The notes under the pieces are model-generated. The model searched no databases, was not told the DNA's origin, and worked only from the letters and a program-made list of their open reading frames with translations. Below, in pieces: positions 6,661 through 36,206 of a DNA stretch of 64,000 nt. This stretch comes from Candidatus Kerfeldbacteria bacterium (lineage in GTDB: Bacteria; Patescibacteriota; Patescibacteriia; SBBC01). Positions within the stretch are counted from its first letter, which is position 1; every line of letters starts with the position of its first letter. The stretch is taken from assembly GCA_043799405.1 (NCBI GenBank), contig JAZDNT010000002.1:235320-299319 (forward strand), given 5' to 3'. Position numbers and translations under genes: made by a program.

Positions 6661-9600
6661 ATGCGCGACACCGCAATCAACTTCATTCGTCGCAACAAGC
6701 GTCCCTTGATGGGGACGTTCGTCGGTGTGGCGATCGCTGTTGTCGTACTGACCGCGCCGCACATCGCTTTCGCAACCTGGCAGGACAACATGATGGGATT
6801 CCTCTCATGGATCGTGTACGGGCTCATCCAGCTCCTCGCGAGCCTTCTCGTCGTCGTCATTAACATCATGGTCAGCGTTGCGCAGTACAGTAAGTTCATC
6901 GGCGTTCCCGCGGTCGAGAAGGGCTGGGCGATCGTCCGTGACGTCTGTAACATGTTCTTCATCGTCGTGCTCCTGATCATCGCGTTCGGTACCATCTTGC
7001 GCATCGAGAACTACCGCTACAACCGCCTGCTCGCGCGGCTCATCGTCATGGCGGTTCTCGTGAACTTCTCGAAGTTCATCGCAGCGTTCTTCATCGACTT
7101 TGCGCAGGTCATCATGCTGACGTTCGTGAACGCCTGGCGTGACATCGCCGCTGGTAACATCACGTCCGCGCTGGGCTTGGAGCAGATCGTCTCTCTGTCG
7201 AACGCGCAGCATAACCTTCAAGACATTTCAGTGAGCTCCGGTACGATATTCACCGCGCTGCTGCTCGGATTATTCCTCGTTACCATAGCGGTCATTGTCA
7301 TGGTCGTCATTGCGATCGTGCTCATCCTCCGCATCCTTGCGCTCTGGTTCCTGATCGTCCTTTCGCCGCTCGCCTTCCTCCTTAAGACCTACCCCTCGAC
7401 AGAGAAGTACGCGTCTCGCTGGTGGCAGGAGTTCGGAAAGTACGTCGTATCAGGTCCTGTTGTCGCTTTTTTGCTGTGGTTAACGCTCGCGATCATCACC
7501 TCCCCGACGAATTTAAGTTCGGACGTCTTTAAAGCGAACCCGTCGAGCGGAAAAGAGACGACAGAGATTATCACCGGGGACGTCGGGGACGAATCAACTC
7601 CGGAATCACGCATCGCCGTTTCGATCAGCGCGATCGGAAAGTCGGAAAATCTCCTTAATTATCTCATCGGAATCATGCTGCTCGTCGGAACGCTCGTCAT
7701 AACGAAGGAGCTCGGCGTCGCAGGAGGCCAGCTCGCCGGACAGATGGCTACACGGATACAAGGTTTTGCAACGAAAGCCGCTACGCTCGCCGGCGCCGGT
7801 ATCGCGACGGGGGGCTTAGCAGCTCCCGCGGCAATGATGGGCGGAAAACGTACGGTCCAACTCGCGAAAACGGCCGTCACGACGCCGCTCAAAGGTATGC
7901 GCGGCGGATTGCGTAACTTCATCGAATCCCGTACCGGTCTTGCGATCCACCCCCAGGAGTGGATGGAAAAGATAAGGGAGGTTGGAAAGGAACACCGTCA
8001 GGAGGCTCTTGACCGCAGGAACGGCATTGCTTCGCGGCGTCTCCAGGGTGGTATCAAGGAGGTCGCAGTAAAGAAATGGCAATTTGTGAAAGGAAAAGGC
8101 CTGAGACGTGTTGCGACCGGCGAAATGGAAACGAGGCAGATACAGGCCCATCCGCGCATTGGCGCCCTTGGCATGCCGGCAACAGCCTGGCGGCATAAAT
8201 GGCAGCTCATGGCGCCCGGAGCTGGTGCAAGGTTTAACGACTTGTCCTTGCTTGCATACAATGAACGTAAAGAACTCGAGGCATCAGAAAAACGGCTCGC
8301 GTTGCGGAAGCAAGGAAGGGATATACGAAAGTACGGCGCGCAGTCGATCGCAGAACGGATGATCCAGGCGCGGATCGATAGACGCACAGCGGAAATCGCA
8401 GCACGACGCGCAGCGAATCCGCAAGGAATGGAAAACCGCGAGGTCGAAGTCGATAAGCGAGGCAGAATGACGCCTAAAGCCGGCGGCAAGACGTTCGATG
8501 AGGTTATTGCAGCCGAAGAGAAGGCGCGTGGAATGAAATACACTCCTGAAGAGCTCTCGGAGAGGAATAAGAAGTGGAATCAGGAAAGAGCCGAATTGAA
8601 TATAAAGCGCGCACAGCAGAGACTGGAAAGGACCAAGCGGGAGAGCGAGATCCGCGATATCCTTAGCAACGCGGCAACGCGGACCTCAAGTCCGTACTAC
8701 TATCAGATTAAGAAGAAGGGTGATAAGGAAAAGGGCGAAAAGGAGAAAGAGGAAAAGGTCACGTACCAAGATGAATTGGATGAAAAGTTGAAAAAAGCGA
8801 AACCCAAAGACAGAGAATTAACGCCGGACGAAATAGCTAAAATTGAAGAAGAGCATAGAAGCGAGTGGGCCGAGGAACAGGCAGAAAAAAGTCTTTTGCA
8901 GGAAGGAGCGTACCACCGGCCGATGGAAACGATGCTCGCGAATGAACAGAAAGGCATTGAAGATACAACTTCCCCCGAACGGCTCGAGGAGGTCGGGCAG
9001 CAGGAAATCGAACAGAAGCTGAAAGAGATCGCAGATGATCTTGAAAAGGCGCGGAAAGGCCTGTTGACGTCGAGCCAGATTAAGCAAAAAGAGGAAGAAC
9101 GAGGTAAGCTCGCTGGGGAAATACTCGGTCTCAAGGGCGCCATCAACGATCATGAGACCGGGACGGTCAAGCTCGATGAGGCGACATTAAAAGAGATGGA
9201 GCGAAGACTGAAAGAGAAGGGAGGACAGGACGGTGTACTTGAGGCGCAGCTGAAGAAAGGTGAGGGTGACGATAAGGATAAAGAAGCAGCGAAAGAGCAG
9301 ATAAAAACGCTCGGACAGACGCAGGATACGCTGAACGCGATCAGAAATGGACCCGCGAGCGAAGTAGAGCTCCGGACGCTCGAAGAGGCGGTTAAGGCAC
9401 AGCGTACAAAGGTACAGGACGCGGATAAGGCAGTCGCGATGGTGCGGCCGCCCGTACCGTTCGAAGCGCAGCGCGAGCTCCGCGATTCCATAAAAGAAAA
9501 GGAGAAGCATCTCCTGACCGACAGCTGGCATGAGCACGCGGCCGTGTTCGAGGATGCGCTCCGGAAAGGCGACGCTGCACTCGCTGCAGCCGCACTCTCT

Positions 9601-10299
9601 CGTGCCGCCGATTATGGCAACGAGAACGAACTCATGAACTTCTTCGGGTACGACTATACGCCGCAAGATTTCAAGAAATTTATTGAGGATATGTTCGTTA
9701 AAAAACTGCATCTTTCCGATAGCCAGGCGCTCTCGATTGCGACCGACGTAGGATACACTGCAGAGAAGACTAAACATTGGAACATCGCTCGCACGACCGC
9801 GGTCGACTCCGGTACCGGTCGTCTCCAATGGCAGAAATACGACGATCAACAGAAGGAAGTACTCGCAGAGGTTAGGAAAGTCGACTTCGAAAACTTCGTC
9901 CGTCAGGGCAACCGGCTCGCCTGGGGCAACGAGTACATCGGAGGAAGCGAGATGCGAGGAGCGTCGCGTGAGGAAAAAGAGCGGTACTTCCGATCTGGCG
10001 GCGGTCGTGAGTTCCAGATGGCAGATTTCTCCCAGGCGTACCTCGGCGAGAACTTTGGCAAGATGATCCGCGGTATGGGCCAAGGCCGGTTCAACGTTAA
10101 CCTCGCTGTAAAACTGACGTCGGCAATGAACAAGGATATAATCGATAAGATGCAGGGAATACTTACGGGCATCACGCAATATTCCGAGGGCAATCCGTAT
10201 AGCTTCGCTGACTGGAGAACGAAGATTGGCCAGTTCGCAGCGACGGACGTCGATAAGACCGAGTTCGAACTGCTCGAACGATTGTTAAGGCACGGATAA
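6661..10299 (+). CDS. VirB6/TrbL-like polytopic membrane protein with a charged coiled-coil C-terminal extension of about 800 aa
   Basis: The start is 1 nt after the previous stop. The first ~330 aa contain 6 or more hydrophobic helices (for example LLASLLVVVINIMV, MFFIVVLLIIAFG, LIVMAVLVNFSKFIAAFFIDFAQVIMLTF, VIAIVLILRILALWFLIVLSPLAFLL), as in TrbL/VirB6 proteins. The rest is K/E/R/Q-rich and heptad-like. Confidence 0.7.
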   Translation: MRDTAINFIRRNKRPLMGTFVGVAIAVVVLTAPHIAFATWQDNMMGFLSWIVYGLIQLLASLLVVVINIMVSVAQYSKFIGVPAVEKGWAIVRDVCNMFFIVVLLIIAFGTILRIENYRYNRLLARLIVMAVLVNFSKFIAAFFIDFAQVIMLTFVNAWRDIAAGNITSALGLEQIVSLSNAQHNLQDISVSSGTIFTALLLGLFLVTIAVIVMVVIAIVLILRILALWFLIVLSPLAFLLKTYPSTEKYASRWWQEFGKYVVSGPVVAFLLWLTLAIITSPTNLSSDVFKANPSSGKETTEIITGDVGDESTPESRIAVSISAIGKSENLLNYLIGIMLLVGTLVITKELGVAGGQLAGQMATRIQGFATKAATLAGAGIATGGLAAPAAMMGGKRTVQLAKTAVTTPLKGMRGGLRNFIESRTGLAIHPQEWMEKIREVGKEHRQEALDRRNGIASRRLQGGIKEVAVKKWQFVKGKGLRRVATGEMETRQIQAHPRIGALGMPATAWRHKWQLMAPGAGARFNDLSLLAYNERKELEASEKRLALRKQGRDIRKYGAQSIAERMIQARIDRRTAEIAARRAANPQGMENREVEVDKRGRMTPKAGGKTFDEVIAAEEKARGMKYTPEELSERNKKWNQERAELNIKRAQQRLERTKRESEIRDILSNAATRTSSPYYYQIKKKGDKEKGEKEKEEKVTYQDELDEKLKKAKPKDRELTPDEIAKIEEEHRSEWAEEQAEKSLLQEGAYHRPMETMLANEQKGIEDTTSPERLEEVGQQEIEQKLKEIADDLEKARKGLLTSSQIKQKEEERGKLAGEILGLKGAINDHETGTVKLDEATLKEMERRLKEKGGQDGVLEAQLKKGEGDDKDKEAAKEQIKTLGQTQDTLNAIRNGPASEVELRTLEEAVKAQRTKVQDADKAVAMVRPPVPFEAQRELRDSIKEKEKHLLTDSWHEHAAVFEDALRKGDAALAAAALSRAADYGNENELMNFFGYDYTPQDFKKFIEDMFVKKLHLSDSQALSIATDVGYTAEKTKHWNIARTTAVDSGTGRLQWQKYDDQQKEVLAEVRKVDFENFVRQGNRLAWGNEYIGGSEMRGASREEKERYFRSGGGREFQMADFSQAYLGENFGKMIRGMGQGRFNVNLAVKLTSAMNKDIIDKMQGILTGITQYSEGNPYSFADWRTKIGQFAATDVDKTEFELLERLLRHG

Positions 10300-10311
10300 C
10301 TAACTATACAG

Positions 10312-11745
10312 ATGGATAAAGGAACACAAACCATACAGGGCATCGACGGACAACCAGTCGATATGACCGATGCTGATCTTGCAACGCCGGAGATGCTCCG
10401 CCTTTTCCAGCGGTACATCATCCACCTCATGACAGGCGGCGATGCGCAGCAGGCATACCAGCTTGTTCGAGGTCTTGATCGTCTCCTGAAAAAGCAGCCG
10501 GAGATCATGCAGCGTATCTCGGAATATTCGCGGGGATACGGGGATATCATGAACATCGCGAAGGGTCTTGCCTTGAGTATGCTGACGAACGACGAGATTA
10601 TGGAGTACCTCCGTAAGGGGATCATCGTCTCGCTCCGCAATCCCGACGTATCGCTTCTCGATGCGATCTCGACAGCGGTCGATAGACAGTACTATGTCGA
10701 GGATATGGACGATTTTAAGCAAAAACTTACCCATGCGCTCTTTGAGAATCATGAACGGCTGACCCTTCAGTCGCTACAGACCGGGCACGGTACCGTGCCG
10801 CCGACCGTACATGATTGGTTACAGGTTGCGCAACAGTATGCCGGTGACATTGGCCGACCCTTAGCCTACGCAGTACAGGATGACGATAACTTCAAGCAGC
10901 TCCAGCAGGGCGAGCAGGAGATCGTACTGAAGCTTATGGGCGTGTACGACTTGTTATCGGTTCCCTCGAGCGCTCCGGAAGGCTTTGACATCAATCTGAC
11001 CGTGGTCGGAACGGACGGCAAGCGGTACGTTATCGAAGGAGGGGACGTCAGGCCCGCTGTCGATCCTGTGACTGAAAAACTATATGAACAGTTTACAGGC
11101 ACTAAAACTGGAGCTCAAGCTCCTTCGACAGCGTCCGCACAAACCGTTGCTGCTCCGTCAATAGCGCCTGTCAAGGCTCTGGTTCCCGATGCCGTCAAGG
11201 GGTACCGTGAGCTCGTTAAGAAAGTCGGCGATGATCATCGTGATGAAGATGAGTCGAGGTACTCTGCGCAGGAAGAGCTGATCAAGGAGTCGCGTAACGA
11301 CATCAGCCACGTAATCTCGAAACTAGCAAACGGCCTTGCCGTCGGCGACCGCGACGCCATCATTGTCAGCCTGTTCGTCCTCACCCGATTTGGAGTGCTC
11401 GATGCCGCGATGAAGGATGTGCGTATCCGCCTGGAGTTTGACGGTGAGTTCATAGCAGCCCTTGCGAAGCAGTCCAACATCTCGGAAGATACAGCGATTT
11501 CGCTTGCGGATCACAACACGAATGCACCAACGACGGTCGCTGCTTTCCTCTACTGGGCGCTCGATAAGGCGATGGCCGGGGATGAGACTGAGTCAGCGCG
11601 GATCGGTAATCAGATCGGCAACCAGATCGCCGCCCTCGGAAAACCTGAATATGTCAGGATGACCTATTTCGATATCAAAACGAACTCGTTCCGTTGGACG
11701 CCGATCGCACTAAAGAAGGACGGTTCGCTTTTGTGGGTGGAGTGA
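10312..11745 (+). CDS. Hypothetical soluble protein (477 aa), T4SS-locus associated
   Basis: Long ORF with protein-like composition, no TM segment and no motif I recognise. Stop TGA at 11743-11745. Confidence 0.7.
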   Translation: MDKGTQTIQGIDGQPVDMTDADLATPEMLRLFQRYIIHLMTGGDAQQAYQLVRGLDRLLKKQPEIMQRISEYSRGYGDIMNIAKGLALSMLTNDEIMEYLRKGIIVSLRNPDVSLLDAISTAVDRQYYVEDMDDFKQKLTHALFENHERLTLQSLQTGHGTVPPTVHDWLQVAQQYAGDIGRPLAYAVQDDDNFKQLQQGEQEIVLKLMGVYDLLSVPSSAPEGFDINLTVVGTDGKRYVIEGGDVRPAVDPVTEKLYEQFTGTKTGAQAPSTASAQTVAAPSIAPVKALVPDAVKGYRELVKKVGDDHRDEDESRYSAQEELIKESRNDISHVISKLANGLAVGDRDAIIVSLFVLTRFGVLDAAMKDVRIRLEFDGEFIAALAKQSNISEDTAISLADHNTNAPTTVAAFLYWALDKAMAGDETESARIGNQIGNQIAALGKPEYVRMTYFDIKTNSFRWTPIALKKDGSLLWVE

Positions 11746-11770
11746 TGTACCGCCCCCTGCCTGTCGGCAG

Positions 11771-11795
11771 TCCCCCTCCTAGCATTGGAGGGGGA
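11771..11795 (+). terminator. GC-rich hairpin after the 477-aa gene (possible terminator; no T-tract)
   Basis: tccccctcc (11771-11779) pairs with ggaggggga (11787-11795). It is followed by the ggatcccgc motif, which also recurs at the tRNA loci. Confidence 0.3.
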
Positions 11796-11821
11796 TCCCG
11801 CGGAGCGGAAGGGGAGGCACA

Positions 11822-12121
11822 ATGACCCTCCGCGTCCCCCGACCGGCTAACAGCACAGTGGCCATCCAACGCTGCGGGTACGCTCAGTTTAATGATTCCC
11901 GTTCCGGCACATTCAGTTATACGCGTCGCCTCGGAACCGGTTTTTATCCGAGATTCCATCTGTACGTTGAAGAGCGAGAAAACGAATTGGTACTTAAACT
12001 CCACCTCGATCAGAAGAGGCCATCGTATGGCGTCGGCCACGCGCACAGCGGAGAATACGACGGTCAGATAGTTGCAACAGAGCTCTCAAGGATTACGGCG
12101 CTGTTGATTCCGCGTTCATAG
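11822..12121 (+). CDS. Small hypothetical protein (99 aa)
   Basis: The ATG is preceded by ggaaggggaggcaca (a GGAGG Shine-Dalgarno about 6 nt upstream). The C-terminal half has plausible composition (FHLYVEERENELVLKLHLDQKRPSYGVGHAHSGEYDG). No family recognised. Confidence 0.4.
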   Translation: MTLRVPRPANSTVAIQRCGYAQFNDSRSGTFSYTRRLGTGFYPRFHLYVEERENELVLKLHLDQKRPSYGVGHAHSGEYDGQIVATELSRITALLIPRS

Positions 12122-12210
12122 AGCATTATGTAAAAAATGAACAGCAAGCGTATTGTGCATTACTGTTTTTTTGTATTGAAAAAAGTGAAATAGTGGAAAT
12201 AAACGAGAGG

Positions 12211-12239
12211 TTTCCATAGACGCTGTTTTGTGGTATAAT
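12211..12239 (+). promoter_or_regulatory. Sigma-70-like promoter with an extended -10, for the 12289 operon
   Basis: TTTCCA (12211-12216), a 17-nt spacer, then tgg-TATAAT (12234-12239). It lies in an AT-rich gap of about 160 nt. Confidence 0.5.
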
Positions 12240-12288
12240 TATTCCGTTATCGTAAGGAAAAAAGTCATTAAAAAAGCCATAAAAACGA

Positions 12289-14127
12289 ATGATTGACTTT
12301 GCTGAAGTCGGACGGCTCAATTTTAGGGAAAAGGCTGCGCTCGTTCGGCTTGATGCTATTCTCGGCGAGGTCGCAAGTTACGCAGAAACAAGGACGGCGG
12401 CAGAGCTCGCATCGATCCTGCAGAAAAAAGTTGATGAGGATGCGGTCCTTGCCGAACCTCTCGCATCGTACATCGCAAAATTCAGGGTCCTTGAGCTTCC
12501 GCTCCTGACGGACACTGATGCCATTTCGGTCTTCTTGCATATCAGAGCCATCCTGGCCGATGAAAGGATCAGTCTCTACGAACGCATCCGCGCTCGATTC
12601 CTTATCGTTCCTTCTTCCCGACGGGAAGCGTTTGCATTGCAGATCCTTGACGTGGTACGGAAATCGGACGAGTCGTTCGGTTCCGGTACTCTATCTGTTG
12701 GCGCTGAAACCCTCCCGCAAACGGTCGGATCCTGGGTCCGTGCGTTTGAAGCAAGCAGCAGTATAAAAACCGGGGATGTGACGGTGTTCTTTGCGCAACC
12801 ATTTTTTAAGAAGCTGAGCGACGAGGATGACCACGCCGTTCGCCACCTCATCCATATCGTTTCGTTGCTGAGAGCACCCGACTCGATTGAGGCAAAACCT
12901 CCCGTTGTCATACAGCGTGTCACCCCTACCCTAAAGCCTGTACCAGCCCCTTCGAATCTTCCTGTTGAACCGTTGCCTTCGGCTCCAGCGTCCGCCGCTC
13001 CACCCCCGGTCATTCTAGCACAACGGCCACGCGTGAGCGCTCCGTCTGTTCCTTTTTCTCCGGCTCCAGCAGCCGTTAGCGCGGAACGGGGTCCGAGCGT
13101 TGCCGCAGTACTCGCGCGGCTACAACAGGCGCAACTCTATACACCTTCATCGACGCCTGCGGTCGCGCACCTCACACCGGAGGATCACGAGGAGATTCGT
13201 CAGCATACCGATAAGCTCGCATCCTACGATGTCGGTCCGAACGTCCACGATACGTTGAGCAATACCACCGATGCGATCATTAAGGATTTTAACCTAACGT
13301 TCGCCGACGAGAACCTTAAGCGTCGGTTCATAACCATAATCACCTCGCGCCTCAAGGATATCCGGAAGCCAACGGACACGCTTGAGATCCTTACGAGAGG
13401 CGTAAAGGTCGGTGGCATGGAGTACGATCCGGAGCTTGCGGAAAAGATCGTCATGAAAGCGACTGAAGAGGCGCAGAAGTTCTCGACAGAAGAGGGCGTG
13501 AAGAAGCTCGTCGAAAAGCAGCAAGTTGTTCCGGCGACGCCAAAACCGCCAAAGGTCCCCATTGAGCCGCAGCCGATATCACCCCAACCTATTCCACCAA
13601 TGATGGCGTTCCCAGCGCCTACCCCTAGTACGTCAATGAGGGTTCCCCTGACGACGCCGAACGTTCCGTTCCGCATTCCCGTTCAGCAGGTACGCGAAGC
13701 GCCTACTGCCCCTCCGCAGCCGGCCCCACCAATACCCTCTGCTTCGTTCAGACCGATCCAGACGGAACGCCCCACGATATCGGACATCCGCGGGGTTTCC
13801 CGGCTCGTCGGTCCGGTCGAGGAGATACGGGCAATGACCCTTTCTGACTTCCGCCGTCTCGGTGAAACTGCGGTCGCGTGCGTACGTAAGGTCTACGAGA
13901 AGATACAGCTGCTCAACAAGGAATCATTCACGAAACGCGCAGAAGGAATTAAGGCGTGGCATGAGTCTGAGACGTACAAGCTCTACCTTGCCATGGGGCA
14001 GGAGAGCCTGTTCACGGGGAAGACGATACGCGACATCATCGTTGAACGGCAGCGCCAGGGGCAGCCAGCGCTGAGCGAACAAGAGTTCTCTCTCACCGCC
14101 GATCTCAACCGTAAACTTCGCTACTGA
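12289..14127 (+). CDS. Hypothetical protein (612 aa) with two Pro-rich linkers
   Basis: Long ORF. Pro/Ala-rich tracts (PVPAPSNLPVEPLPSAPASAAPPP; PATPKPPKVPIEPQPISPQPIPP) separate globular segments. No TM segment. The stop is 2 nt before the next gene. Confidence 0.75.
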   Translation: MIDFAEVGRLNFREKAALVRLDAILGEVASYAETRTAAELASILQKKVDEDAVLAEPLASYIAKFRVLELPLLTDTDAISVFLHIRAILADERISLYERIRARFLIVPSSRREAFALQILDVVRKSDESFGSGTLSVGAETLPQTVGSWVRAFEASSSIKTGDVTVFFAQPFFKKLSDEDDHAVRHLIHIVSLLRAPDSIEAKPPVVIQRVTPTLKPVPAPSNLPVEPLPSAPASAAPPPVILAQRPRVSAPSVPFSPAPAAVSAERGPSVAAVLARLQQAQLYTPSSTPAVAHLTPEDHEEIRQHTDKLASYDVGPNVHDTLSNTTDAIIKDFNLTFADENLKRRFITIITSRLKDIRKPTDTLEILTRGVKVGGMEYDPELAEKIVMKATEEAQKFSTEEGVKKLVEKQQVVPATPKPPKVPIEPQPISPQPIPPMMAFPAPTPSTSMRVPLTTPNVPFRIPVQQVREAPTAPPQPAPPIPSASFRPIQTERPTISDIRGVSRLVGPVEEIRAMTLSDFRRLGETAVACVRKVYEKIQLLNKESFTKRAEGIKAWHESETYKLYLAMGQESLFTGKTIRDIIVERQRQGQPALSEQEFSLTADLNRKLRY

Positions 14128-30588: not shown

Positions 30589-31419
30589 TTATTCGGCCGT
30601 GCGTGCGGTCGATTCGCCGTACTCGATACTGAACTTCACACGGCCGTACGGCATTTTCTTCGGCGGATTGTCGAGGTCGAGCTCGACCCGATTCGGGATG
30701 AGGGACGTTTCCTGGCGTTCACGAGGCGCTCCCTCCTCGTTGAACAATTTCGGCATTTCCAGTTTAGTCGCTGGCGTTCCAGCTAAGTCAATGACTGCGC
30801 CGAGGTGGACGCTGTCGCTTTCTCCCTCGGCCGTCTTGGTGATCTCCCTGTACACGGTCGTCTTCGCATCCATGACGAATTTTTCAACACGCTTTTTGTC
30901 ATTATCAACGGCCACCGTTACGTCACCTGATGCAACCATAGCGTCAAGCGTTTCCTTAGAAGGTCGAAGCACTGCCTCGGGGAACGTCGCAAGTTCGCCA
31001 TCGCCCCAACTTGAGCCGCTTGTACCTCTTTCGGTACGACCATGGCGCACATTTGAAAGGTGGATATTTTTTCCGATGACATCAAGATTATCGAACTCGA
31101 CGCTGCCGACGTTCCATGTCTCATAGCGCTCTTTGTCCGATTCAGTCTGTACATTCGGATCTTGTTCGGTAATAGGAGTTCCCTGTTCATCGACTAAGAC
31201 CTTTCCGGTCTCGGGATCGGTTTTTATCCGTTCACCGGTAAATGAACCCTTGATGAACGTTGCACCGTTCTGACCTTTTTCGTATTTGGTCTGTTGATAT
31301 TCCCGGCCGTCGTACGCATACCTAGTATCGAACGTTTCGTTTCCTTCAATGTCGGTTTCATCTGAACCTTCAATGTATTGATCGAGTTTTGGTGCTCGTC
31401 CGTGTTCAGGGTTTTCCAT
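30589..31419 (-). CDS. Hypothetical acidic soluble protein (276 aa)
   Basis: Long ORF of plausible composition with no TM segment or signal. It has an AT-rich upstream region. No motif recognised. Confidence 0.7.
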   Translation of the reverse strand: MENPEHGRAPKLDQYIEGSDETDIEGNETFDTRYAYDGREYQQTKYEKGQNGATFIKGSFTGERIKTDPETGKVLVDEQGTPITEQDPNVQTESDKERYETWNVGSVEFDNLDVIGKNIHLSNVRHGRTERGTSGSSWGDGELATFPEAVLRPSKETLDAMVASGDVTVAVDNDKKRVEKFVMDAKTTVYREITKTAEGESDSVHLGAVIDLAGTPATKLEMPKLFNEEGAPRERQETSLIPNRVELDLDNPPKKMPYGRVKFSIEYGESTARTAE

Positions 31420-31539
31420 AATCGATTAGAGTTTAATTAAGTAACAGAATACTATACACGATATTTTCCTTGTAGTCAAGTGTAACACGAATTAACAGTT
31501 CTTTGTAAGAACTCACTTGATTTGTTATTCGGATTACTA

Positions 31540-31840
31540 TGGCGCGCCCGGCAGCCCCGCACTATTCGCTACGCTCAAGTGCGGGATCTTCGAGATTTGT
31601 CCAGCGGCCCTTTTTGTTACAATCGACTATTACAGTTGCTGACCGCCGCCCTGCCTGGTGCGCTCGGGAGGATTTGAACCTCCGGCCCTCAGCTCCGCAA
31701 GCTGAGGCTCTATCCGGACTGAGCTACGCGCGCCCAGGCAGGGCGGCGTCTGAATAATTTAAGTAACGTTGATATATTAGCTGATGCGGTACCTGCCTCG
31801 CACCCGCAGTGGTGCGGGGTCCGGACTGAGCTACGGGCGC
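31540..31840 (-). other. tRNA-Arg-like outer shell: a 5' fragment (acceptor, D-stem, D-loop) and a 3' acceptor+CCA fragment bracketing the intact tRNA-Arg
   Basis: On the minus strand, GCGCCCG-TA-GCTC-AGTCCGGA (31840-31820) is near-identical to the inner gene's 5' end and is then broken by CCCCGCAC. Far downstream, GTGCGGGG-CTGC-CGGGCGC-G-CCA (31562-31540) has an acceptor strand that is a perfect complement of GCGCCCG. Confidence 0.4.
31656..31733 (-). tRNA. tRNA-Arg (anticodon GCG)
   Basis: Manual cloverleaf: GCGCGCG TA GCTC AGTCCGGATA GAGC C TCAGC TTGCGGA GCTGA GGGCC GGAGG TTCAAAT CCTCC CGAGCGC A CCA. There is one G-A mismatch in the acceptor stem. CCA is encoded. Confidence 0.85.
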
Positions 31841-31914
31841 ACGCCGGAATATCTTAGCATACCATTGAGTTATTACAACCAGATGAATACCCGTCGCTTG
31901 TACAGCCAATAAAC

Positions 31915-31938
31915 CACCGCATGTGTCGATGCACGGTG
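31915..31938 (-). terminator. Hairpin downstream of the 166-aa membrane protein gene
   Basis: On the minus strand, CACCGTGCAT-CGACA-CATGCGGTG is followed by GTTTATT. The stem is imperfect. Confidence 0.35.
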
Positions 31939-31956
31939 TTTCCTGAACGATTTCTA

Positions 31957-32457
31957 TTAGATCCTGAACAGCCTTCCTATCGCGTCCGAGGTCGCCTCGT
32001 CCTCCTTTGAAAGGTCTTCCTGAATGAACCTGCGAAGCTGTTTTCTGATCTCAACGGGGTTCGCATCCTCGAGCGCGATGCCGATCAGCGGACGGAGCGC
32101 GCTCTTGAAGGTGAAGTAGATCGTTTTTGCCGGCGGTTTGTAGATGATCCAGAAGTTCTTGATGTCGTCAAACGGGAAGAAGTCCTTTCCGATGCCGATG
32201 CCGTCCTCGAATATTGTCGCGGTCAGCACCCGCGGTTTCTGGCGCGAGCGGTAGTAGAAGATCGACCAGCCGATGATGACAATGAAGGCGAACAGGGGAT
32301 TTCTCGAGAAGATCGCGTACGTTAACAGCGCAAGCCCGATGACCGTCATGATGGCGTACCACATCCGCGTATAGGCATAGTGGGGGATTTCCGGAAACTT
32401 CCACGATAGCAGCGAGCTGCCGTGGTCGATCACTTGGTTTTGTTCTGGTTGCGCCAT
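31957..32457 (-). CDS. Hypothetical membrane protein (166 aa, two TM helices plus a soluble C-terminal domain)
   Basis: TM helices MWYAIMTVIGLALLTYAIF and LFAFIVIIGWSIFYY, followed by a domain of about 100 aa. Confidence 0.75.
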   Translation of the reverse strand: MAQPEQNQVIDHGSSLLSWKFPEIPHYAYTRMWYAIMTVIGLALLTYAIFSRNPLFAFIVIIGWSIFYYRSRQKPRVLTATIFEDGIGIGKDFFPFDDIKNFWIIYKPPAKTIYFTFKSALRPLIGIALEDANPVEIRKQLRRFIQEDLSKEDEATSDAIGRLFRI

Positions 32458-32532
32458 AGGTGCACCTCCTTATGTAGAGTGTACCACGTTTGAACAATTC
32501 AATATATCCACCGAGACCATCGCCGGTTAAAT

Positions 32533-32846
32533 GGTTTTCCCCGCTCCTTGATTTAAGGCATCAAATGATTGCGGGATCGCGCCAATAGCGGAGGGTGAAG
32601 GATTCCCGCCGACCTCCTCGGCTGTGCTCGGAGTTTGGCGGGCAGGCGAACCTACGATCCCGCCTTTGGCGGGCAAGACTCATGAGGAGAGCGGAGGCGG
32701 TAGGATTCGAACCCCGTATAAGCGCTACGCGCTTTACGGGGCAAGCCCCCGATACCTTTGCAGGTATTCCGGTTTTTCAGGCGAAGCCGGATCCGGCTCT
32801 GTCGGGCAAGACTCATGAGGAGAGCGGAGGCGGTAGGATTCGAACC
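32533..32846 (-). repeat. Scrambled tRNA-Ser-derived fragments and direct repeats downstream of the nested tRNA-Ser(UGA) pair
   Basis: A 44-nt direct repeat, GGTTCGAATCCTACCGCCTCCGCTCTCCTCATGAGTCTTGCCCG, occurs at 32846-32803 and 32713-32670. A repeat of about 73 nt (T-loop 3' half, acceptor, trailer hairpin) occurs at 32942-32870 and 32605-32533. There is also a chimeric interrupted T-arm, GTAGGTTC|42 nt|GAATCCTTC. Confidence 0.5.
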
Positions 32847-33061
32847 TACGAGACCTTTTCAGGTCTAGCGGTTTTTCCCGCTCTTTGATCTAGTGTATCA
32901 AATGTTTGCGGGATCGCGCCAATGGCGGAGGGTGAAGGATTCGAACCTTCGAGACCATTGCTGGTCTAACGGTTTTCAAGACCGTCGCTTTCGACCGCTC
33001 AGCCAACCCTCCGCCATTGGCGGGACAAGACTGCCCGATTCAACCACTCTCGCACGCCTCC
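32825..33061 (-). tRNA. Interrupted tRNA-Ser(UGA)-like gene (outer) whose 150-nt anticodon-loop insert contains the complete inner tRNA-Ser(UGA)
   Basis: Exon 1 (33061-33026): GGAGGCG TG CGA GAGTGGTTGAA TCG G GCAGT CTTG. Exon 2 (32875-32825): AAA ACCGC TAGACCTGAAAAGGTCTC GTAGG TTCGAAT CCTAC CGCCTCC G. Joined, these give an 87-nt type-II cloverleaf with one A-C mismatch in the anticodon stem. Whether it is expressed or spliced is unknown. Confidence 0.5.
32923..33012 (-). tRNA. tRNA-Ser (anticodon UGA)
   Basis: GGAGGGT TG GCT GAGCGGTCGAA AGC G ACGGT CTTGAAA ACCGT TAGACCAGCAATGGTCTC GAAGG TTCGAAT CCTTC ACCCTCC G CCA. All stems are Watson-Crick and it has a long variable arm. Confidence 0.9.
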
Positions 33062-33106
33062 GCTCTCCCTACGAATTGTCACCTTAGACCACTCAGCCAA
33101 CCTTCC
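33062..33106 (-). other. Orphan 5' fragment of a third type-II tRNA (acceptor plus D-arm 5' part)
   Basis: GGAAGGT TG GCT GAGTGGTCTAA is followed by non-tRNA sequence that ends in GGAGAGC, which pairs with the trailer of the outer Ser(UGA). I could not assemble a colinear 3' partner. Confidence 0.4.
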
Positions 33107-33114
33107 ATAAATCA

Positions 33115-33462
33115 CTACCGACGAATTTGGTTATTTTCTGGTTTCGTGTGGTGGTATTTACCGAGGATGTCTTTTGCAACCATATTGAACGCTTCCTCAA
33201 TATCGATGTTGAGTTGGTTCGAAAGCCTGCAGAGCGCGAAGAAGAGGTCGCCGATGCCGTCCTTGAAGATCATAGTATGTTTCTTCACGAACGCAACTCG
33301 TTCCTTCTCCGATTTGTAGCGGAGGTGCTGCGACATTTCGATGAGTTCCTCGTGGAGGTGGTCGAATTTGTCGACATTCGGGACGTCTTTCCAACGGTTG
33401 CGTCGTGAAAATACCTTCACAAGCGCCTGCGCATCACGCATGGAACTGATTCGTTGTTGCAT
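33115..33462 (-). CDS. MazG-like nucleotide pyrophosphohydrolase (115 aa)
   Basis: Helical protein with HLHEELIEMSQ...IGDLFFALCRLSNQLNIDIEEAF, which fits the EExxE...D pattern of the MazG family. Confidence 0.8.
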   Translation of the reverse strand: MQQRISSMRDAQALVKVFSRRNRWKDVPNVDKFDHLHEELIEMSQHLRYKSEKERVAFVKKHTMIFKDGIGDLFFALCRLSNQLNIDIEEAFNMVAKDILGKYHHTKPENNQIRR

Positions 33463-33478
33463 AGGTATTGTTAATTAT

Positions 33479-33573
33479 CTGGCGGGACACTCGAGTTAGG
33501 TACCCAACCCGCGCAAGCATTATACGGGTTTTCTGACGATTTTTCTAGAGGGTGATTCGAGGTACATGGGTCA
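33479..33573 (-). repeat. Intergenic repeat element, copy 1 (promoter plus leader upstream of the MazG-like gene)
   Basis: Shares these blocks with copy 2: tggcgg[g/a]acac..gagttaggtacc, ttttctgacgattttt, gagg.ca.g.gggtc. On the minus strand it carries TATAAT (33524-33519). Confidence 0.5.
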
Positions 33574-33583
33574 CTCAAAAACT

Positions 33584-34270
33584 CTATGTGCGGTAAGATC
33601 GTGACTCGATTCTCTCGGCGCGTAATTTCAGAACTCGCTCCGAGATTAATCGGGCTATATCTTCTCGAGAATACTTCGGATGTTTCGAGTATGCTGGGTG
33701 CAAAGTACTTAAAACCCCCCAAATCGCTTGGTGATCACCGGGTTGAGCATCGACCCATTCATTAAATATTGACAGACGAGCTAATTCGCCGATGTCGCGT
33801 TCTTTTCGCTCATCAGTTGTCATTGGCAGTAGCGCACTTTCGAAAATGAGATGAAAATCTGGACCGAATACTTTATTACATATCTGACGTGTCCGGGGAA
33901 TATGGTAATCCGCTGCAACGATAACAAGACTGTGCCACTTTTTCGGGATCGCAAAGAGTGTTTTTACAAAGTATGCGTTTCCAATCGTTTCTTTTGACTG
34001 CTCCTCTTTGAGTATACAACTCGATGGACAGCCAAGCTGTTCAGCAAATTCTGCCATAGCCGCAGCCTCGGTTCGTAACGGCACCATTACACTCGATGAT
34101 GCCCAAGCTCCTGACATTACTATCACTGGAGCAAGCTTGTCATTCCACAATTGAACCGCCTTTTTGACTCGAACACGTGAGTTGTTTTCAAGTGATCCGT
34201 CAGGGTTTATTCCCCCGCCGAATACTACAATGGCGTCAAACATGTGAACATTTACTTTTTTTACTAGCAA
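33584..34270 (-). CDS. DUF218/YdcF-family protein
   Basis: FDAIVVFGGGINPDGS...VIVMSGAWASS...TEAAAMAEF...KETIGNAYF...VIVAADYHIPRT fits the YdcF/ElyC pattern. Confidence 0.8.
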   Translation of the reverse strand: MLVKKVNVHMFDAIVVFGGGINPDGSLENNSRVRVKKAVQLWNDKLAPVIVMSGAWASSSVMVPLRTEAAAMAEFAEQLGCPSSCILKEEQSKETIGNAYFVKTLFAIPKKWHSLVIVAADYHIPRTRQICNKVFGPDFHLIFESALLPMTTDERKERDIGELARLSIFNEWVDAQPGDHQAIWGVLSTLHPAYSKHPKYSREDIARLISERVLKLRAERIESRSYRT

Positions 34271-34298
34271 TTGGGTCTACTCCAATACTTTGCTCTCT

Positions 34299-34392
34299 TG
34301 GCGGAACACATGAGTTAGGTACCACCGCCAGAGGGATATTGTAAGGCTTTTCTGACGATTTTTATAGGCGCGAATTTGAGGCAGGTGGGTCG
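34299..34392 (-). repeat. Intergenic repeat element, copy 2 (upstream of the DUF218 gene)
   Basis: See copy 1. On the minus strand it carries TACAAT (34343-34338). Its downstream end, TCCGCCAAGAGAGCAAAGTATTGGAGTAGACCC, resembles the 3' end and trailer of the outer tRNA-Ser(GCU), TCCGCCAAGAGAACCAAGTATCGTACGACCC. Confidence 0.5.
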
Positions 34393-34409
34393 GGTGGGCC
34401 GGCAGCTTT

Positions 34410-35147
34410 TTATTTTTTAAACGCCTTTACCTTCCCACGTGGTGGGTAGCGAAGATCGTGTGTATGCATCACATAGTTCGAATATGCCAGTCGTTTTTTT
34501 TGCTCAAAACGTTGAAATCCACTTAACCTAATCCGTTCTTTCGGATCCTTATAGGCAGAGATTTGAGCTTTGATGTCAGTAATATAGAACCATCGAAAAC
34601 CTCCCAGCCAGGCTCGTCTACAGTAATCGGCGTCTTCACTACGACGGCTAACCGCTGACAAATAACCCAATTTGCCGAACACTTGTTTTGAAAAAGAAAA
34701 GAAACAGCCAGCTAAATTCCAGTATGGCCATGGATCCAAGTAGTGGCGTCCATTTTTGGCTAATGCGAAACCACTCATGTAGGTATAAGCACCGAGTATG
34801 GCTTTATCTTGCCAGTCTCTATGCGCCTTCATTAATGTGTCAACCCAGTTACTACTTTGGATGGTAACGTCGTTATCGAGGATGGTATAATAATCCATCC
34901 TAGGGTAACGTCGTAGGGCTACATTGACGCTTTTCGGTTTACCGATGTTTTTTTCGTTGCGCTGGAGTAGGATGGCAGGATTTTTTGCAATTAATTTCTG
35001 TATCGCCGTTCTTGTTTTCAGGTCGCTATGATCATCGGCAATAAGTAATGTGCTTTTTTTCAGATCTGTCGTCCGCACCAGACTCCCAATACAACGCCGA
35101 GTAAGCGTCGGTTTATTATATACGCAGACAATAATAAGGTGTTTCAT
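34410..35147 (-). CDS. Family 2 glycosyltransferase
   Basis: IIVCVYNKPTLTRRCIGSL...LIADDHSD...ILDNDV fits the GT-A fold (DxD) pattern. Confidence 0.8.
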   Translation of the reverse strand: MKHLIIVCVYNKPTLTRRCIGSLVRTTDLKKSTLLIADDHSDLKTRTAIQKLIAKNPAILLQRNEKNIGKPKSVNVALRRYPRMDYYTILDNDVTIQSSNWVDTLMKAHRDWQDKAILGAYTYMSGFALAKNGRHYLDPWPYWNLAGCFFSFSKQVFGKLGYLSAVSRRSEDADYCRRAWLGGFRWFYITDIKAQISAYKDPKERIRLSGFQRFEQKKRLAYSNYVMHTHDLRYPPRGKVKAFKK

Positions 35148-35193
35148 AAAACCATTTTAGTATGCACCCGGGTCGTACGATACTTGGTTCTCT

Positions 35194-35523
35194 TGGCGGA
35201 GAGGGAGAGATTCTCCCGCTCCTTTTCTTAATATGCGAAACGATTCGCGGGATCCCGCCCATCGAGGGCGGGAGAACTCTCGATCCCGCAATATGGCGGG
35301 ATAACGGTTTAGTCGCCGCCCCAGAGCGGAGAGGGAGAGATTCGAACTCTCGAAGCGAGTATAACCCCGCTTAACGGTTTAGCAAACCGCTGCCTTCAGC
35401 CACTCGGCCACCTCTCCGCTCTGGGGCGGGATCCTCGTCCCGTTTTATGGCGGGACGGGACAAACCGCTGCGCCTGCCCCGCACCCATTGTGGTGCGGGG
35501 TTCAACCGCTCGGCCACCTCTCC
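35194..35523 (-). tRNA. Triply interrupted tRNA-Ser(GCU)-like gene (outer) containing the intact tRNA-Ser(GCU) in its anticodon-loop insert
   Basis: Colinear parts: GGAGAGG TG GCC GAGCGGTTGAA | 24-nt hairpin | CAGGCGCA GCGGT TTG | 148-nt insert | CTAA ACCGT TA TCCCGCCATATTGCGGGA TC GAGAG TTC | 60-nt insert | GAAT CTCTC CCTCTCC G CCA. About 2-4 extra nt near the D/anticodon junction remain unexplained. Confidence 0.5.
35327..35417 (-). tRNA. tRNA-Ser (anticodon GCU)
   Basis: GGAGAGG TG GCC GAGTGGCTGAA GGC A GCGGT TTGCTAA ACCGT TAAGCGGGGTTATACTCGCTTC GAGAG TTCGAAT CTCTC CCTCTCC G. CCA is not encoded. Confidence 0.9.
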
Positions 35524-35552
35524 GCTCTGCGCCCTTTGATCGCGTTAGAGCG

Positions 35553-36206
35553 TTATCCCTTTGCAATGGTAAGTGCGGTGATGTGTTCCATTCCGGCTTC
35601 GCGGAGGACGTGCGCAACCTCGGAAATCGTTGCACCGGTCGTGAACACGTCGTCGATGATTATACCACGTTTCGGTACAAAATCAACGGCGTGTGCTAAT
35701 GCGAATGCATGCGCGACGTTCCTGGCGCGCTCGTTCTCATGCAGCGTGACCTGAGGAACAGTGTTCTTAATCCTGATGACCAGCGGCATGACTGGTATCT
35801 TGAGAACGGACGCTGCTTCTTCAGAGATGAGCATTGCCTGGTTAAACCCGCGCGAGCGTTGCCGTTTTGAATGAAGCGGTACGGGTATGATACAATCAGC
35901 CGTTAAATATTCTTCTGCAAGTTTTCCAAGCGCGCGACCGAGGATGGTGCTTATAACCCTGCCGCCGCCATACTTGAGTTGCTTGATGACTTGCCCGAGG
36001 ATCCTTGAATCGTACGAACCAAGACAGAGCAGACGGTCGACGTGTTTTACCGGTTCAGCGCGGTCGATATGAGGACCGCACGATAAAAGGCACGATTCGC
36101 ATAGCCATACGCCGTCGGTGCCGCACCCGCGGCAAGAAGGCGGAAAGAGGATATTGAGAACTAGTTCGCGGAGATGGTGAATAATCGGTGGCATAGTACG
36201 CGCCAC
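35553..36206 (-). CDS. comF: ComF-family phosphoribosyltransferase-like competence protein
   Basis: N-terminal Cys cluster (CRGCG...CESC). The C-terminal PRTase motif is IIIDDVFTTGATISE. Confidence 0.85.
   Translation of the reverse strand: MARTMPPIIHHLRELVLNILFPPSCRGCGTDGVWLCESCLLSCGPHIDRAEPVKHVDRLLCLGSYDSRILGQVIKQLKYGGGRVISTILGRALGKLAEEYLTADCIIPVPLHSKRQRSRGFNQAMLISEEAASVLKIPVMPLVIRIKNTVPQVTLHENERARNVAHAFALAHAVDFVPKRGIIIDDVFTTGATISEVAHVLREAGMEHITALTIAKG

Follow-up and report, generated by a model that had tools for sequence, protein, structure and literature searches.

Probable overwriting of tRNA genes by small tRNA-carrying cassettes in a Kerfeldbacteria genome

A complete tRNA-Ser(UGA) gene was found to interrupt a second and almost intact tRNA-Ser(UGA) exactly in its anticodon loop, between positions 35 and 36, in the genome of a Candidatus Kerfeldbacteria bacterium (contig JAZDNT010000002.1 of assembly GCA_043799405.1); the whole stretch of DNA analyzed here, positions 235,320 to 299,319 of that contig (64,000 nucleotides), is called the window, and all positions are counted from its first nucleotide unless another locus is named. 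Overall, the results are probably best explained by serial overwriting of the tRNA gene by small mobile cassettes. The outer tRNA looks like the dead shell of an older gene that was split by such a cassette, and the insert is probably a cassette that moved at the DNA level rather than an intron; in this account of relic and cassette, we have considerable confidence. The observations that carry it are the nesting itself, the empty sites in relatives, a precise junction that recurs, a common grammar of the cassettes, and the decay of the outer copies. Indeed, a tRNA cassette of about 150 bp, with no open reading frame (ORF), has been inserted repeatedly and in sense orientation into resident genes of the same identity, in varied allelic contexts.

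The tRNA-Ser(UGA) nest and its counterparts in related genomes

Both halves of the outer gene are on the minus strand. The 5' half (33026-33061; 36 nt, GGAGGCGTGCGAGAGTGGTTGAATCGGGCAGTCTTG) ends in CTTG at position 35, whereas the 3' half (32825-32875; 51 nt, AAAACCGCTAGACCTGAAAAGGTCTCGTAGGTTCGAATCCTACCGCCTCCG) starts with AAAACC and runs from A36 to the discriminator. An earlier note on this DNA, made by reading the letters alone, had described one tRNA-Ser(UGA) gene inside the loop of the other, and on re-reading, all its coordinates and sequences for the nest were found to be correct, including the differences that it listed between the outer and inner copies in the acceptor, D and T stems. 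When the outer halves were joined, ARAGORN indeed identified the 87-mer as tRNA-Ser(tga), the lone A.C mismatch being in the anticodon stem, as that note had also said. The joined sequence is 84-89% identical to the uninterrupted and presumably functional tRNA-Ser(UGA) of three related loci, named L002, L013 and L003; its 5' half is identical to that of the functional L003 tRNA at 34 of 36 positions, and its T arm and acceptor are identical to those of the uninterrupted L002 and L013 genes. An outer tRNA of this quality is far beyond chance.

The 150-nt insert that separates the two halves contains no ORF and no promoter-like site. On the minus strand, the left end and leader of the cassette (33013-33025; TCCCGCCAATGGC) are followed by the inner tRNA-Ser(UGA) (32923-33012), which encodes its own CCA, was recovered by both ARAGORN and Rfam (RF00005, 61.5 bits), and is presumably the functional gene. 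The leader pairs with the trailer (32914-32922, minus strand; TTGGCGCGA), which completes a leader:trailer helix that includes TGG:CCA; the two constitute inverted repeat I1 (20 nt, 95% complementary), and 11 of the 12 positions beyond the acceptor stem of the inner tRNA are paired. The right end of the cassette is formed by a second hairpin unit (32876-32913, minus strand; TCCCGC-26 nt-GCGGGA), the interior of which is AT-rich with a TTTGAT/ATCAAA stem, and which has homologues with identical ends in L001, L003, L012 and L023. The insert thus starts with TCCCGC and ends with GCGGGA as the earlier note had it, but the pairing of these two ends with each other, also claimed there, did not hold in the predicted fold. 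As RNA or as DNA, the insert folded into two independent hairpin units (z = -8.6 and -7.6), such that its terminal GCGGGA is predicted to pair with the internal TCCCGC at 32913-32908 and not with the first six bases. In the first unit, the cloverleaf is predicted to be enclosed by a helix of 20 bp, to which the leader TCCCGCCAATGGC, the trailer ..CCATTGGCGCGA and the acceptor stem contribute.

Syntenic loci from seven other assemblies were compared with the window, all of the data being metagenome assemblies and only three tRNA loci being seen per genome. The earlier note had suggested looking for orthologous outer genes that are empty, and these were found: in L002 and L013, a single tRNA-Ser(UGA), which is uninterrupted and of the outer type (GGAGGCG/CGCCTCC, GTAGG/CCTAC), occupies the syntenic place. 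Six other assemblies, belonging to four close relatives and two other lineages, contain other cassettes or nests in other resident alleles. In L001, the window's inner type is itself the outer gene, and is split after CTTG by a third type, the leader of which is TCACCGCACTTGGT. Three nesting levels each were recognized at the tRNA-Ser(UGA) of L003, L011 and L012; L011 has the identical leader and the beginning of the inner tRNA of the window, into which a further cassette and an insertion sequence (IS) of the IS200 type have in turn been inserted. The AT-richer lineages of L017/L021 and L023 follow the same grammar as the window, the order being the outer 5' half ending ..GTCTTG, then TCCCGC-N4-TGGC, the tRNA and CCA-N-CGGGR, then a hairpin, and finally AAAACYG.. 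of the outer 3' half. In pattern scans of large collections, that of genome contigs returned 8 loci with only L003 being genuine, and that of metagenomes returned 11, three of them genuine (L017 = L021, and L023) and the other eight representing a coding motif of FliI-type ATPases.

The outer type is functional in L002, L013 and L003, and the inner type in L023 and L017. The tRNA-Ser(UGA) alleles are 69-94% identical among the genomes, the ClpC proteins of which are 77-82% identical to that of the window. From the paired substitutions between the two copies, the earlier note had concluded that the outer one evolved as a folded tRNA. The compensatory changes are real; however, they do not speak for a live, intron-containing gene after the insertion, since the outer type is the uninterrupted resident in L002 and L013 and its 5' half is shared so closely with L003, and the differences therefore predate the nesting.

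All three tRNA genes of the window, namely Ser-UGA, Ser-GCU and Arg-GCG, are nested in remnants of older copies. In the tRNA-Ser(GCU) nest (35194-35523, minus strand), the functional gene at 35417-35327 has the leader TCCCGCCCCAGAGC and the trailer CTCTGGGGCGGCGA, which form a 12-bp clamp, and is preceded by a hairpin unit. The cassette sits after the TTG (position 34/35) of an older tRNA-Ser(GCU), which itself has an indel of 2 nt and is interrupted in two loops, namely by a hairpin of 24 nt in the D loop and, after the GTTC of the T loop, by an 'empty' element of 60 nt with two hairpins. In the tRNA-Arg(GCG) nest (31540-31840, minus strand), the functional gene at 31733-31656, flanked by a 14-bp leader:trailer helix (GCCGCCCTGCCTGG / CCAGGCAGGGCGGC), lies between the 5' part of an older tRNA-Arg (31840-31820, GCGCCCG...) and its 3' acceptor strand (CGGGCGCGCCA, ending at 31540). 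This older shell is heavily decayed, and its acceptor type is that of the intact, uninterrupted tRNA-Arg in L003.

Cassette grammar, junctions and layered remnants

The cassettes, about 150 bp in length, are built of hairpin units that start with TCCCGC (variants TCACCGC and AACCCAGC) and end with GCGGGA. One unit encloses the complete tRNA, the acceptor stem of which is lengthened by 9-14 bp of leader:trailer pairing, and the second is a plain hairpin. Beyond the acceptor stem, cassette-type tRNAs have 9-12 of 12 leader:trailer positions paired, in contrast to 2-6 of 12 in plain tRNAs; the three stems of tRNA-Arg cassettes were scored by eye, owing to a register offset of one base. The paired leader and trailer sequences vary between cassettes and often include TGG:CCA, and the right ends of the cassettes read GGGA, AGGA, GCGA or GGTA. 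It is to be noted that the order of the units is permuted, the tRNA preceding the hairpin at Ser-UGA and following it at Ser-GCU, and that the junctions between units read GCGGGA|TCCCGC, both of which would fit a circular intermediate opened at either junction.

The point of entry is equally constant. Among 33 unit starts in 14 tRNA regions, 14 come directly after TTG (CTTG 9, GTTG 2, ATTG 2, TTTG 1), against a regional background of 1.7% (P about 1e-16), and 12 of the remaining 19 are preceded by another unit that ends in ..GGA, ..CGA or ..GAA. In tRNA-Ser(UGA), the insertion point is CTTG^AAA, at positions 35/36, with no duplication or loss of the target, and at each of the five two-sided Ser-UGA sites, removal of the insert restored CTTGAAA and a stem of 4-5 bp. 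Adjacent to the junction, the anticodon stems vary (GCAGT, ACGGT, CCGGT, GGGGT and GCGGT), which argues that the flanks were not co-converted with the cassette. Insertions in T loops come after GTTC or TTCG. Units that consist of a hairpin only are confined to relic copies, none being present in the functional tRNAs called by ARAGORN, and the two tRNAs with no TTG in the anticodon loop (Trp and Thr of L021) are both plain (n=2). Within the 64-kb window, all 10 of the CCCGC..GCGGG hairpins fall in the three tRNA regions, where 3.8 would be expected. The hexamers TCCCGC and GCGGGA have an ordinary frequency outside these regions and were dropped as a genome-wide marker of cassettes.

The surroundings of the Ser-UGA nest are layered, in that the entire 33106-32508 interval is made of tRNA-Ser pieces of at least three generations, all read on the minus strand. 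The oldest remnant is the 5' part, comprising acceptor and D arm, of an earlier tRNA-Ser (33078-33106; GGAAGGTTGGCTGAGTGGTCTAAGGTGAC), with 83% identity to the inner 5' part (repeat D5). It is followed by GGAGAGC (33062-33068), a 7-nt leader of the outer tRNA that is complementary to the GCTCTCC located just past the outer 3' end (inverted repeats I3 and I4; 14 nt, 100% complementary); by comparison with L011, this 'leader' may instead be the acceptor strand of another relic. On the other side of the nest, a further layer (32692-32824) consists of the trailer CTCTCC-TCATG-AGTCTTG, two small hairpins, and a tRNA-Ser 3' half (repeats D2 and D3), the variable arm of which, AATACCTGCAAAGGTATC, is that of the L001 inner tRNA, and the T stem of which is split by a 30-nt insert. 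Next comes a degenerate second composite copy (32508-32691), in which AGTCTTG is followed by the empty hairpin unit CCCGCCAAAGGCGGGA and then by a T arm and acceptor of the inner type with a 42-nt hairpin within the T loop; these lead into a trailer, a second hairpin unit, and the truncated 3' half of a tRNA-Ser. The two downstream segments (32824-32508) each start after AGTCTTG; repeat D1 in this area extends over 94 nt and is 83% identical to 32849-32942, and repeat D3 extends over 54 nt at 94%. The only promoter-like site of the region, TTAACC-18-TATATT (32501-32530, minus strand), precedes a gene for 166 amino acids (32457-31957) and is built partly from relic tRNA 3'-half DNA.

The wider setting of these nests in the window is chromosomal, with genes for ClpC, a ComF-like protein (35553-36206), type IV pili, a cluster resembling a type IV secretion system (T4SS), RecG and RadA. 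A phage or plasmid origin was considered and rejected, as blastn of 31500-35600 against phage records yielded generic tRNA similarity only; two cassette patterns that were searched in viral contigs gave zero matches. Between the Ser-GCU nest and a MazG-like gene, the window has a family 2 glycosyltransferase gene (34410-35147) and a DUF218 gene (33584-34270), both of which are missing at this place in L001 and L002, and which probably represent another insertion beside a tRNA gene. The T4SS-like block (648-23969) encodes giant proteins of 2003 and 1212 amino acids, the latter with a TrbL/VirB6 region, as well as a PrgI-like protein, a VirB4/TraC-like ATPase and two T4SS-pilin proteins, one of them fused to an SLT transglycosylase, and is followed by RadA; such a block is typical for genomes of the Candidate Phyla Radiation (CPR; Patescibacteria), the ultra-small bacteria to which the present one belongs, but could be an integrated conjugative element.

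Several of the related loci have features of their own. In L001, an island with a large serine recombinase, a ResIII helicase and an N6/N4 methyltransferase (6789-12330) lies between the Ser-UGA nest and the gene that is next to the nest in the window and in L002, and a multi-hairpin insert of about 100 nt and of a different kind (GTCGGGCCGGATGGCC...GATCGCCCCGGAC; 6353-6453) occupies the D loop of the outer tRNA-Ser(UGA). In L013, the functional tRNA-Ser(GCU) is followed directly downstream by a displaced piece of such a gene (11171-11273), comprising acceptor and T arm with hairpins in the T loop, and no 5' relic is present. The IS200-like element of L011 (11778-12334), which has a Y1 transposase of 148 amino acids and hairpins at both ends, is located in the D loop of a relic tRNA-Ser, on the antisense strand and after CTTTAG. 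Small GIY-YIG ORFs were seen inside the tRNA-Ser(GCU) nest of L012 (11442-11693; 83 amino acids) and immediately upstream of the plain tRNA-Trp of L021 (about 4819-5000, minus strand).

Decay of the outer copies and rival explanations

The outer copies are decaying. In the window, the only stem mismatch of the outer tRNA is due to an A where L003 has G, a change suggestive of decay, and the outer copies elsewhere have indels, extra hairpins in the D and T loops, the IS200 with its Y1 transposase, and large deletions or truncations.

Homing is the competitor that survives best, and we nevertheless consider it unlikely. A site-specific endonuclease, for example of the GIY-YIG type, would cut the DNA of the anticodon loop, and repair from a transformed, filled allele would copy the cassette, in a manner resembling intron homing or intron-less homing. 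The cognate specificity would then follow simply from the flanking homology; moreover, competence genes are found in CPR genomes, as exemplified by the ComF-like gene and the type IV pili, and GIY-YIG ORFs do occur in the Ser-GCU nest of L012 and upstream of the tRNA-Trp of L021. However, one and the same cassette type is seen in resident alleles that differ right up to GTCTTG, so that no co-conversion tract is present; the window and the other nests contain no GIY-YIG gene; and empty two-hairpin units are located in the D and T loops of relics, where homing guided by homology is not expected.

It is less probable still, and in our estimate quite improbable, that the nests are scars of integrases, i.e., that the integration of a phage or island duplicated a part of the tRNA gene and a later deletion left the fragments. 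The anticodon loop of tRNA genes is reportedly a classical target of integrases, the island with the large serine recombinase is situated just downstream of the L001 nest, and displaced 3' fragments do occur downstream of functional genes, as in the L013 Ser-GCU locus and at 32824-32508 of the window. On the other hand, an integrase displaces only the part that is 3' of the crossover and leaves a hybrid gene, whereas here the 5' half has been displaced as well, and the inner gene is no hybrid but a complete one, the two strands of its own acceptor stem matching each other. The left (CTTG|TCCCGC) and right (GCGGGA|AAAACC) junctions have no common core; cores of 0-2 nt were tried by inspection at these junctions, and none fits. 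Furthermore, the two-hairpin architecture of about 150 nt recurs in independent events, the insert is devoid of an ORF, and the window has no integrase.

An origin without any mobility, be it local tandem duplication, slippage, gene conversion, or mis-assembly of strain mixtures in metagenome-assembled genomes, appears very improbable. The 32824-32508 segment does look tandem (repeats D1 and D3), all sequences are from metagenome assemblies, and several of the related contigs end near the loci (L011, L014). Against this, the identical junction after TTG was found at 14 sites in 8 assemblies (NCBI, JGI and ENA) made by different assemblers, removal of the insert restores a perfect loop, and duplication could not have brought into the loop of one gene a second, complete one whose acceptor stem differs and whose palindromic flanks are new. 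An assembly artefact was likewise rejected, on the grounds that the base-precise junction is identical in eight assemblies from three archives.

Removal of the insert at the RNA level, in which RNase P and RNase Z would free the inner tRNA, an endonuclease and RtcB would join the outer halves held together by the leader:trailer duplex as in the split tRNAs of Nanoarchaeum, and both tRNAs would function, is the least tenable of these alternatives. It is true that the outer copy of the window is nearly intact, that the complementary leader and trailer could keep the outer halves paired after excision of the inner tRNA, and that splicing of group I introns at this same 35/36 position is known from Patescibacteria (PMC13011429). 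Nonetheless, Rfam cmscan of 31400-35600, with E-values up to 5, detected no group I or group II intron and no ribozyme, but only tRNA and spurious matches, and a group I core (RF00028, P3-P9) is absent from the insert, 90 of the 150 nt of which are tRNA. Group I introns have a U at the last position of the exon, forming U.G in P1, and a G as the last base of the intron. In the nest, the exon ends in ...CTTG and the insert in ...GCGGGA, thus with G in place of U and A in place of G. The bulge-helix-bulge of archaeal introns, in which a 4-bp helix lies between two bulges of 3 nt with the splice sites, could not be drawn: both junctions are at the feet of long helices without bulges in the predicted fold, and on inspection, neither CGGG nor GCGG, the possible tetranucleotides ahead of the 3' junction, can pair with GUCU of the exon. 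Neither EndA nor RtcB was found among the 40 ORFs of the window that were scanned with Pfam. The outer tRNA would also be redundant, as it shares the anticodon of the inner one; the indels and further inserts of the other outer copies would all need removal; hairpin inserts never occur in functional copies; and relatives with the empty site do well. That the outer halves, held by the leader:trailer duplex, are still joined into a tRNA in the RNA is, in our opinion, less likely than any of the above.

Proposed mechanism, comparison with known elements, and significance

In the mechanism that we propose, a cassette would enter a resident gene whose tRNA identity and orientation it shares, at a point 3' of a TTG in a loop, whereby the resident gene would be split and inactivated. 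The incoming tRNA would be transcribed from the resident promoter and take over the decoding; as the inner tRNA thus replaces the lost function, the insertion would be nearly neutral. Dependence on the resident promoter is suggested by the lack of a promoter-like site in the cassette, and would in turn explain the orientation. The outer halves would then decay and gather further hairpin elements, until a later cassette strikes the new gene, leading to Russian-doll arrays. The long clamp might keep the inner tRNA and the homologous outer halves from mispairing, or serve as a processing stem, or both. Restriction to cognate genes could be due to selection, as non-cognate hits in essential, presumed single-copy tRNA genes would be lethal. 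The mobility of the DNA may be provided in trans by a single-strand, hairpin-recognizing HUH nuclease or transposase (IS91-, IS200/IS605- or Rep-like), the targets possibly being the hairpin loops of heavily transcribed DNA. The short specific sequence 5' of the cut, the absence of duplication, the hairpins at the ends, and the targets in hairpin loops are what suggest HUH chemistry, an assignment that we regard as doubtful. A broader proposal, which we rate at somewhat less than an even chance, is that of a previously undescribed selfish class: protein-less, hairpin-defined 'tRNA replacement cassettes', which would be HUH-nicked into CTTG^A-like loop sites of cognate tRNA genes and would move between CPR genomes, probably as single-stranded circles.

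Among the HUH elements, IS91 has as its target 5'-CTTG or GTTC next to oriIS, with no duplication, subterminal palindromes, and a single-stranded DNA circle (PMC13181058). The cassettes are likewise inserted 3' of CTTG or GTTC with no duplication; however, no Y2 HUH transposase was found in the window or related loci, and the right ends of the cassettes are not the terIS tetranucleotides CTCG/GTTC. The cut point CTTG^A is also like that of pC194-type origins, in which the nick site is CTTG^ATA (PMC5037232). Palindrome-associated derivatives (PATE) of the IS200/IS605 family are similar in having hairpins at both ends, a short specific 5' target and no duplication, but the window has no Y1 gene, and the Y1 transposase domain (Y1_Tnp) of L011 is in an IS with unrelated ends. 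With IS91 and IS200/IS605, the defining features in common are only the target and the lack of duplication. For HUH elements in general, a plausible circular intermediate and a target in single-stranded or hairpin-loop DNA are points of likeness, whereas a cargo inside the loop of an end hairpin and targets restricted to tRNA loops are points of difference. The repetitive palindromes of the REP/REPIN-RAYT systems and the cassettes of integrons resemble the tRNA cassettes in their short palindromic units with constant ends and variable interiors, in their concatenated arrays, and in their presumed movement in trans by an enzyme specific for single strands; in contrast, the tRNA cassettes lack the REP head of the GTAG type as well as a GTT core triplet at their junctions, neither RAYT nor IntI was found, and the cassettes are restricted to tRNA loops and carry a tRNA. 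Regarding integrons in particular, an attC hairpin has RYYYAAC/GTTRRRY cores and is joined at G|TT, whereas the unit ends here are TCCCGC/GCGGGA and the junctions TTG|T, A|T and A|A. A miniature inverted-repeat transposable element (MITE) of the DDE type would agree with the terminal inverted repeats TCCCGC/GCGGGA, but no two-sided junction has a duplication.

Phages and islands that target tRNA genes are alike in often using the anticodon loop, in bringing tRNA sequence that restores the gene, and in leaving displaced fragments; unlike them, the cassette measures only about 150 bp and has no integrase, the tRNA gene that it brings is whole and not an identity block located 3' of the crossover, both resident halves are displaced, and no core is shared with the target. 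The disrupted tRNA genes of archaea, for which integration of mobile elements is said to have been proposed as the origin, share the interruption at several loops and, in the split tRNAs of Nanoarchaeum, the complementary leader and trailer; the present case differs in being bacterial, in having no bulge-helix-bulge, and in that the interrupted copies decay around an intact, redundant one. Nearest to the nests among the published work that was found are the group I introns at 35/36 of tRNA-Asn and tRNA-Asp described in Patescibacteria (Nakagawa et al. 2026, PMC13011429), in a report with no mention of nested tRNA genes. They match the cassettes in phylum, in gene class and, for Ser-UGA, in the position in the anticodon loop, but not in the lack of a ribozyme core, the size of 150 nt, the G before the junction, the tRNA cargo, or the decay of the interrupted gene. 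Altogether, the cassette lacks defining features of the group I, bulge-helix-bulge, integrase-element, DDE-MITE and integron families; by our analysis, it would work like an integrative element that repairs its target gene, and in appearance it is close to the protein-less elements of the HUH type (PATE or REPIN-like). The chances are substantial that the cassettes deserve a class of their own, beyond the known mobile elements that target tRNA genes or are defined by hairpins. The earlier note had known of no described bacterial tRNA gene inside another, and the full-text literature that we searched indeed contained no description of nested tRNA genes or of palindromic elements that carry a tRNA.

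A number of observations weigh against overwriting by mobile cassettes and must be considered together. No enzyme is linked to the cassettes in the window or related loci, and Pfam revealed no transposase, recombinase, integrase or homing endonuclease among the 40 ORFs of the window. The Y1 transposase of L011 belongs to an IS200 with ends unrelated to those of the cassettes, and tblastn with this protein and with the GIY-YIG protein of L012 found nothing elsewhere; the Y1 transposase and the GIY-YIG ORFs of L012 and L021 are therefore to be taken as enzyme leads only. The searches of phage records and viral contigs revealed no cassette outside a tRNA gene, nor any on a plasmid or phage, and no genome had a near-identical pair of cassettes at different loci, as recent transposition would leave. 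The right end of the cassette (..GGGA) is unlike the target, whereas the ends of IS801 and IS1294 resemble theirs. In IS608, the hairpins are offset from the cleavage points by about 19 nt and 10 nt, whereas the cassette hairpins directly abut them. On our analysis, a bare TTG target alone cannot explain the cognate placement, for which the selection argument is needed. In L002, clamps of the cassette type are present with no relics; these may have been deleted there, or else clamps are not exclusive to mobile copies and could characterize the tRNA genes of a lineage. Finally, the 32824-32508 segment is tandem-like rather than cleanly nested, and is left unaccounted for by the cassettes.

If overwriting by cassettes is correct, it would add a third way in which a mobile element can sit harmlessly in an essential gene. 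In the known ways, the element splices itself out, as introns and inteins do, or rebuilds the end that it cut, as integrase elements do; here, it would bring along a complete spare copy. It raises a question of enzymology, namely, which nuclease recognizes CTTG^A in the loop of a tRNA gene, and it carries a warning for annotation, because tRNA finders report the inner gene only, and the relic halves can be mistaken for split or intron-containing tRNAs. The arrays would constitute a dated fossil record of the successive tRNA alleles at one locus. The tRNA genes of the genome-reduced CPR bacteria, each presumably present in one copy and regarded as inherited vertically, would undergo horizontal turnover, with rapid exchange of tRNA alleles that leaves Russian-doll gene fossils behind.

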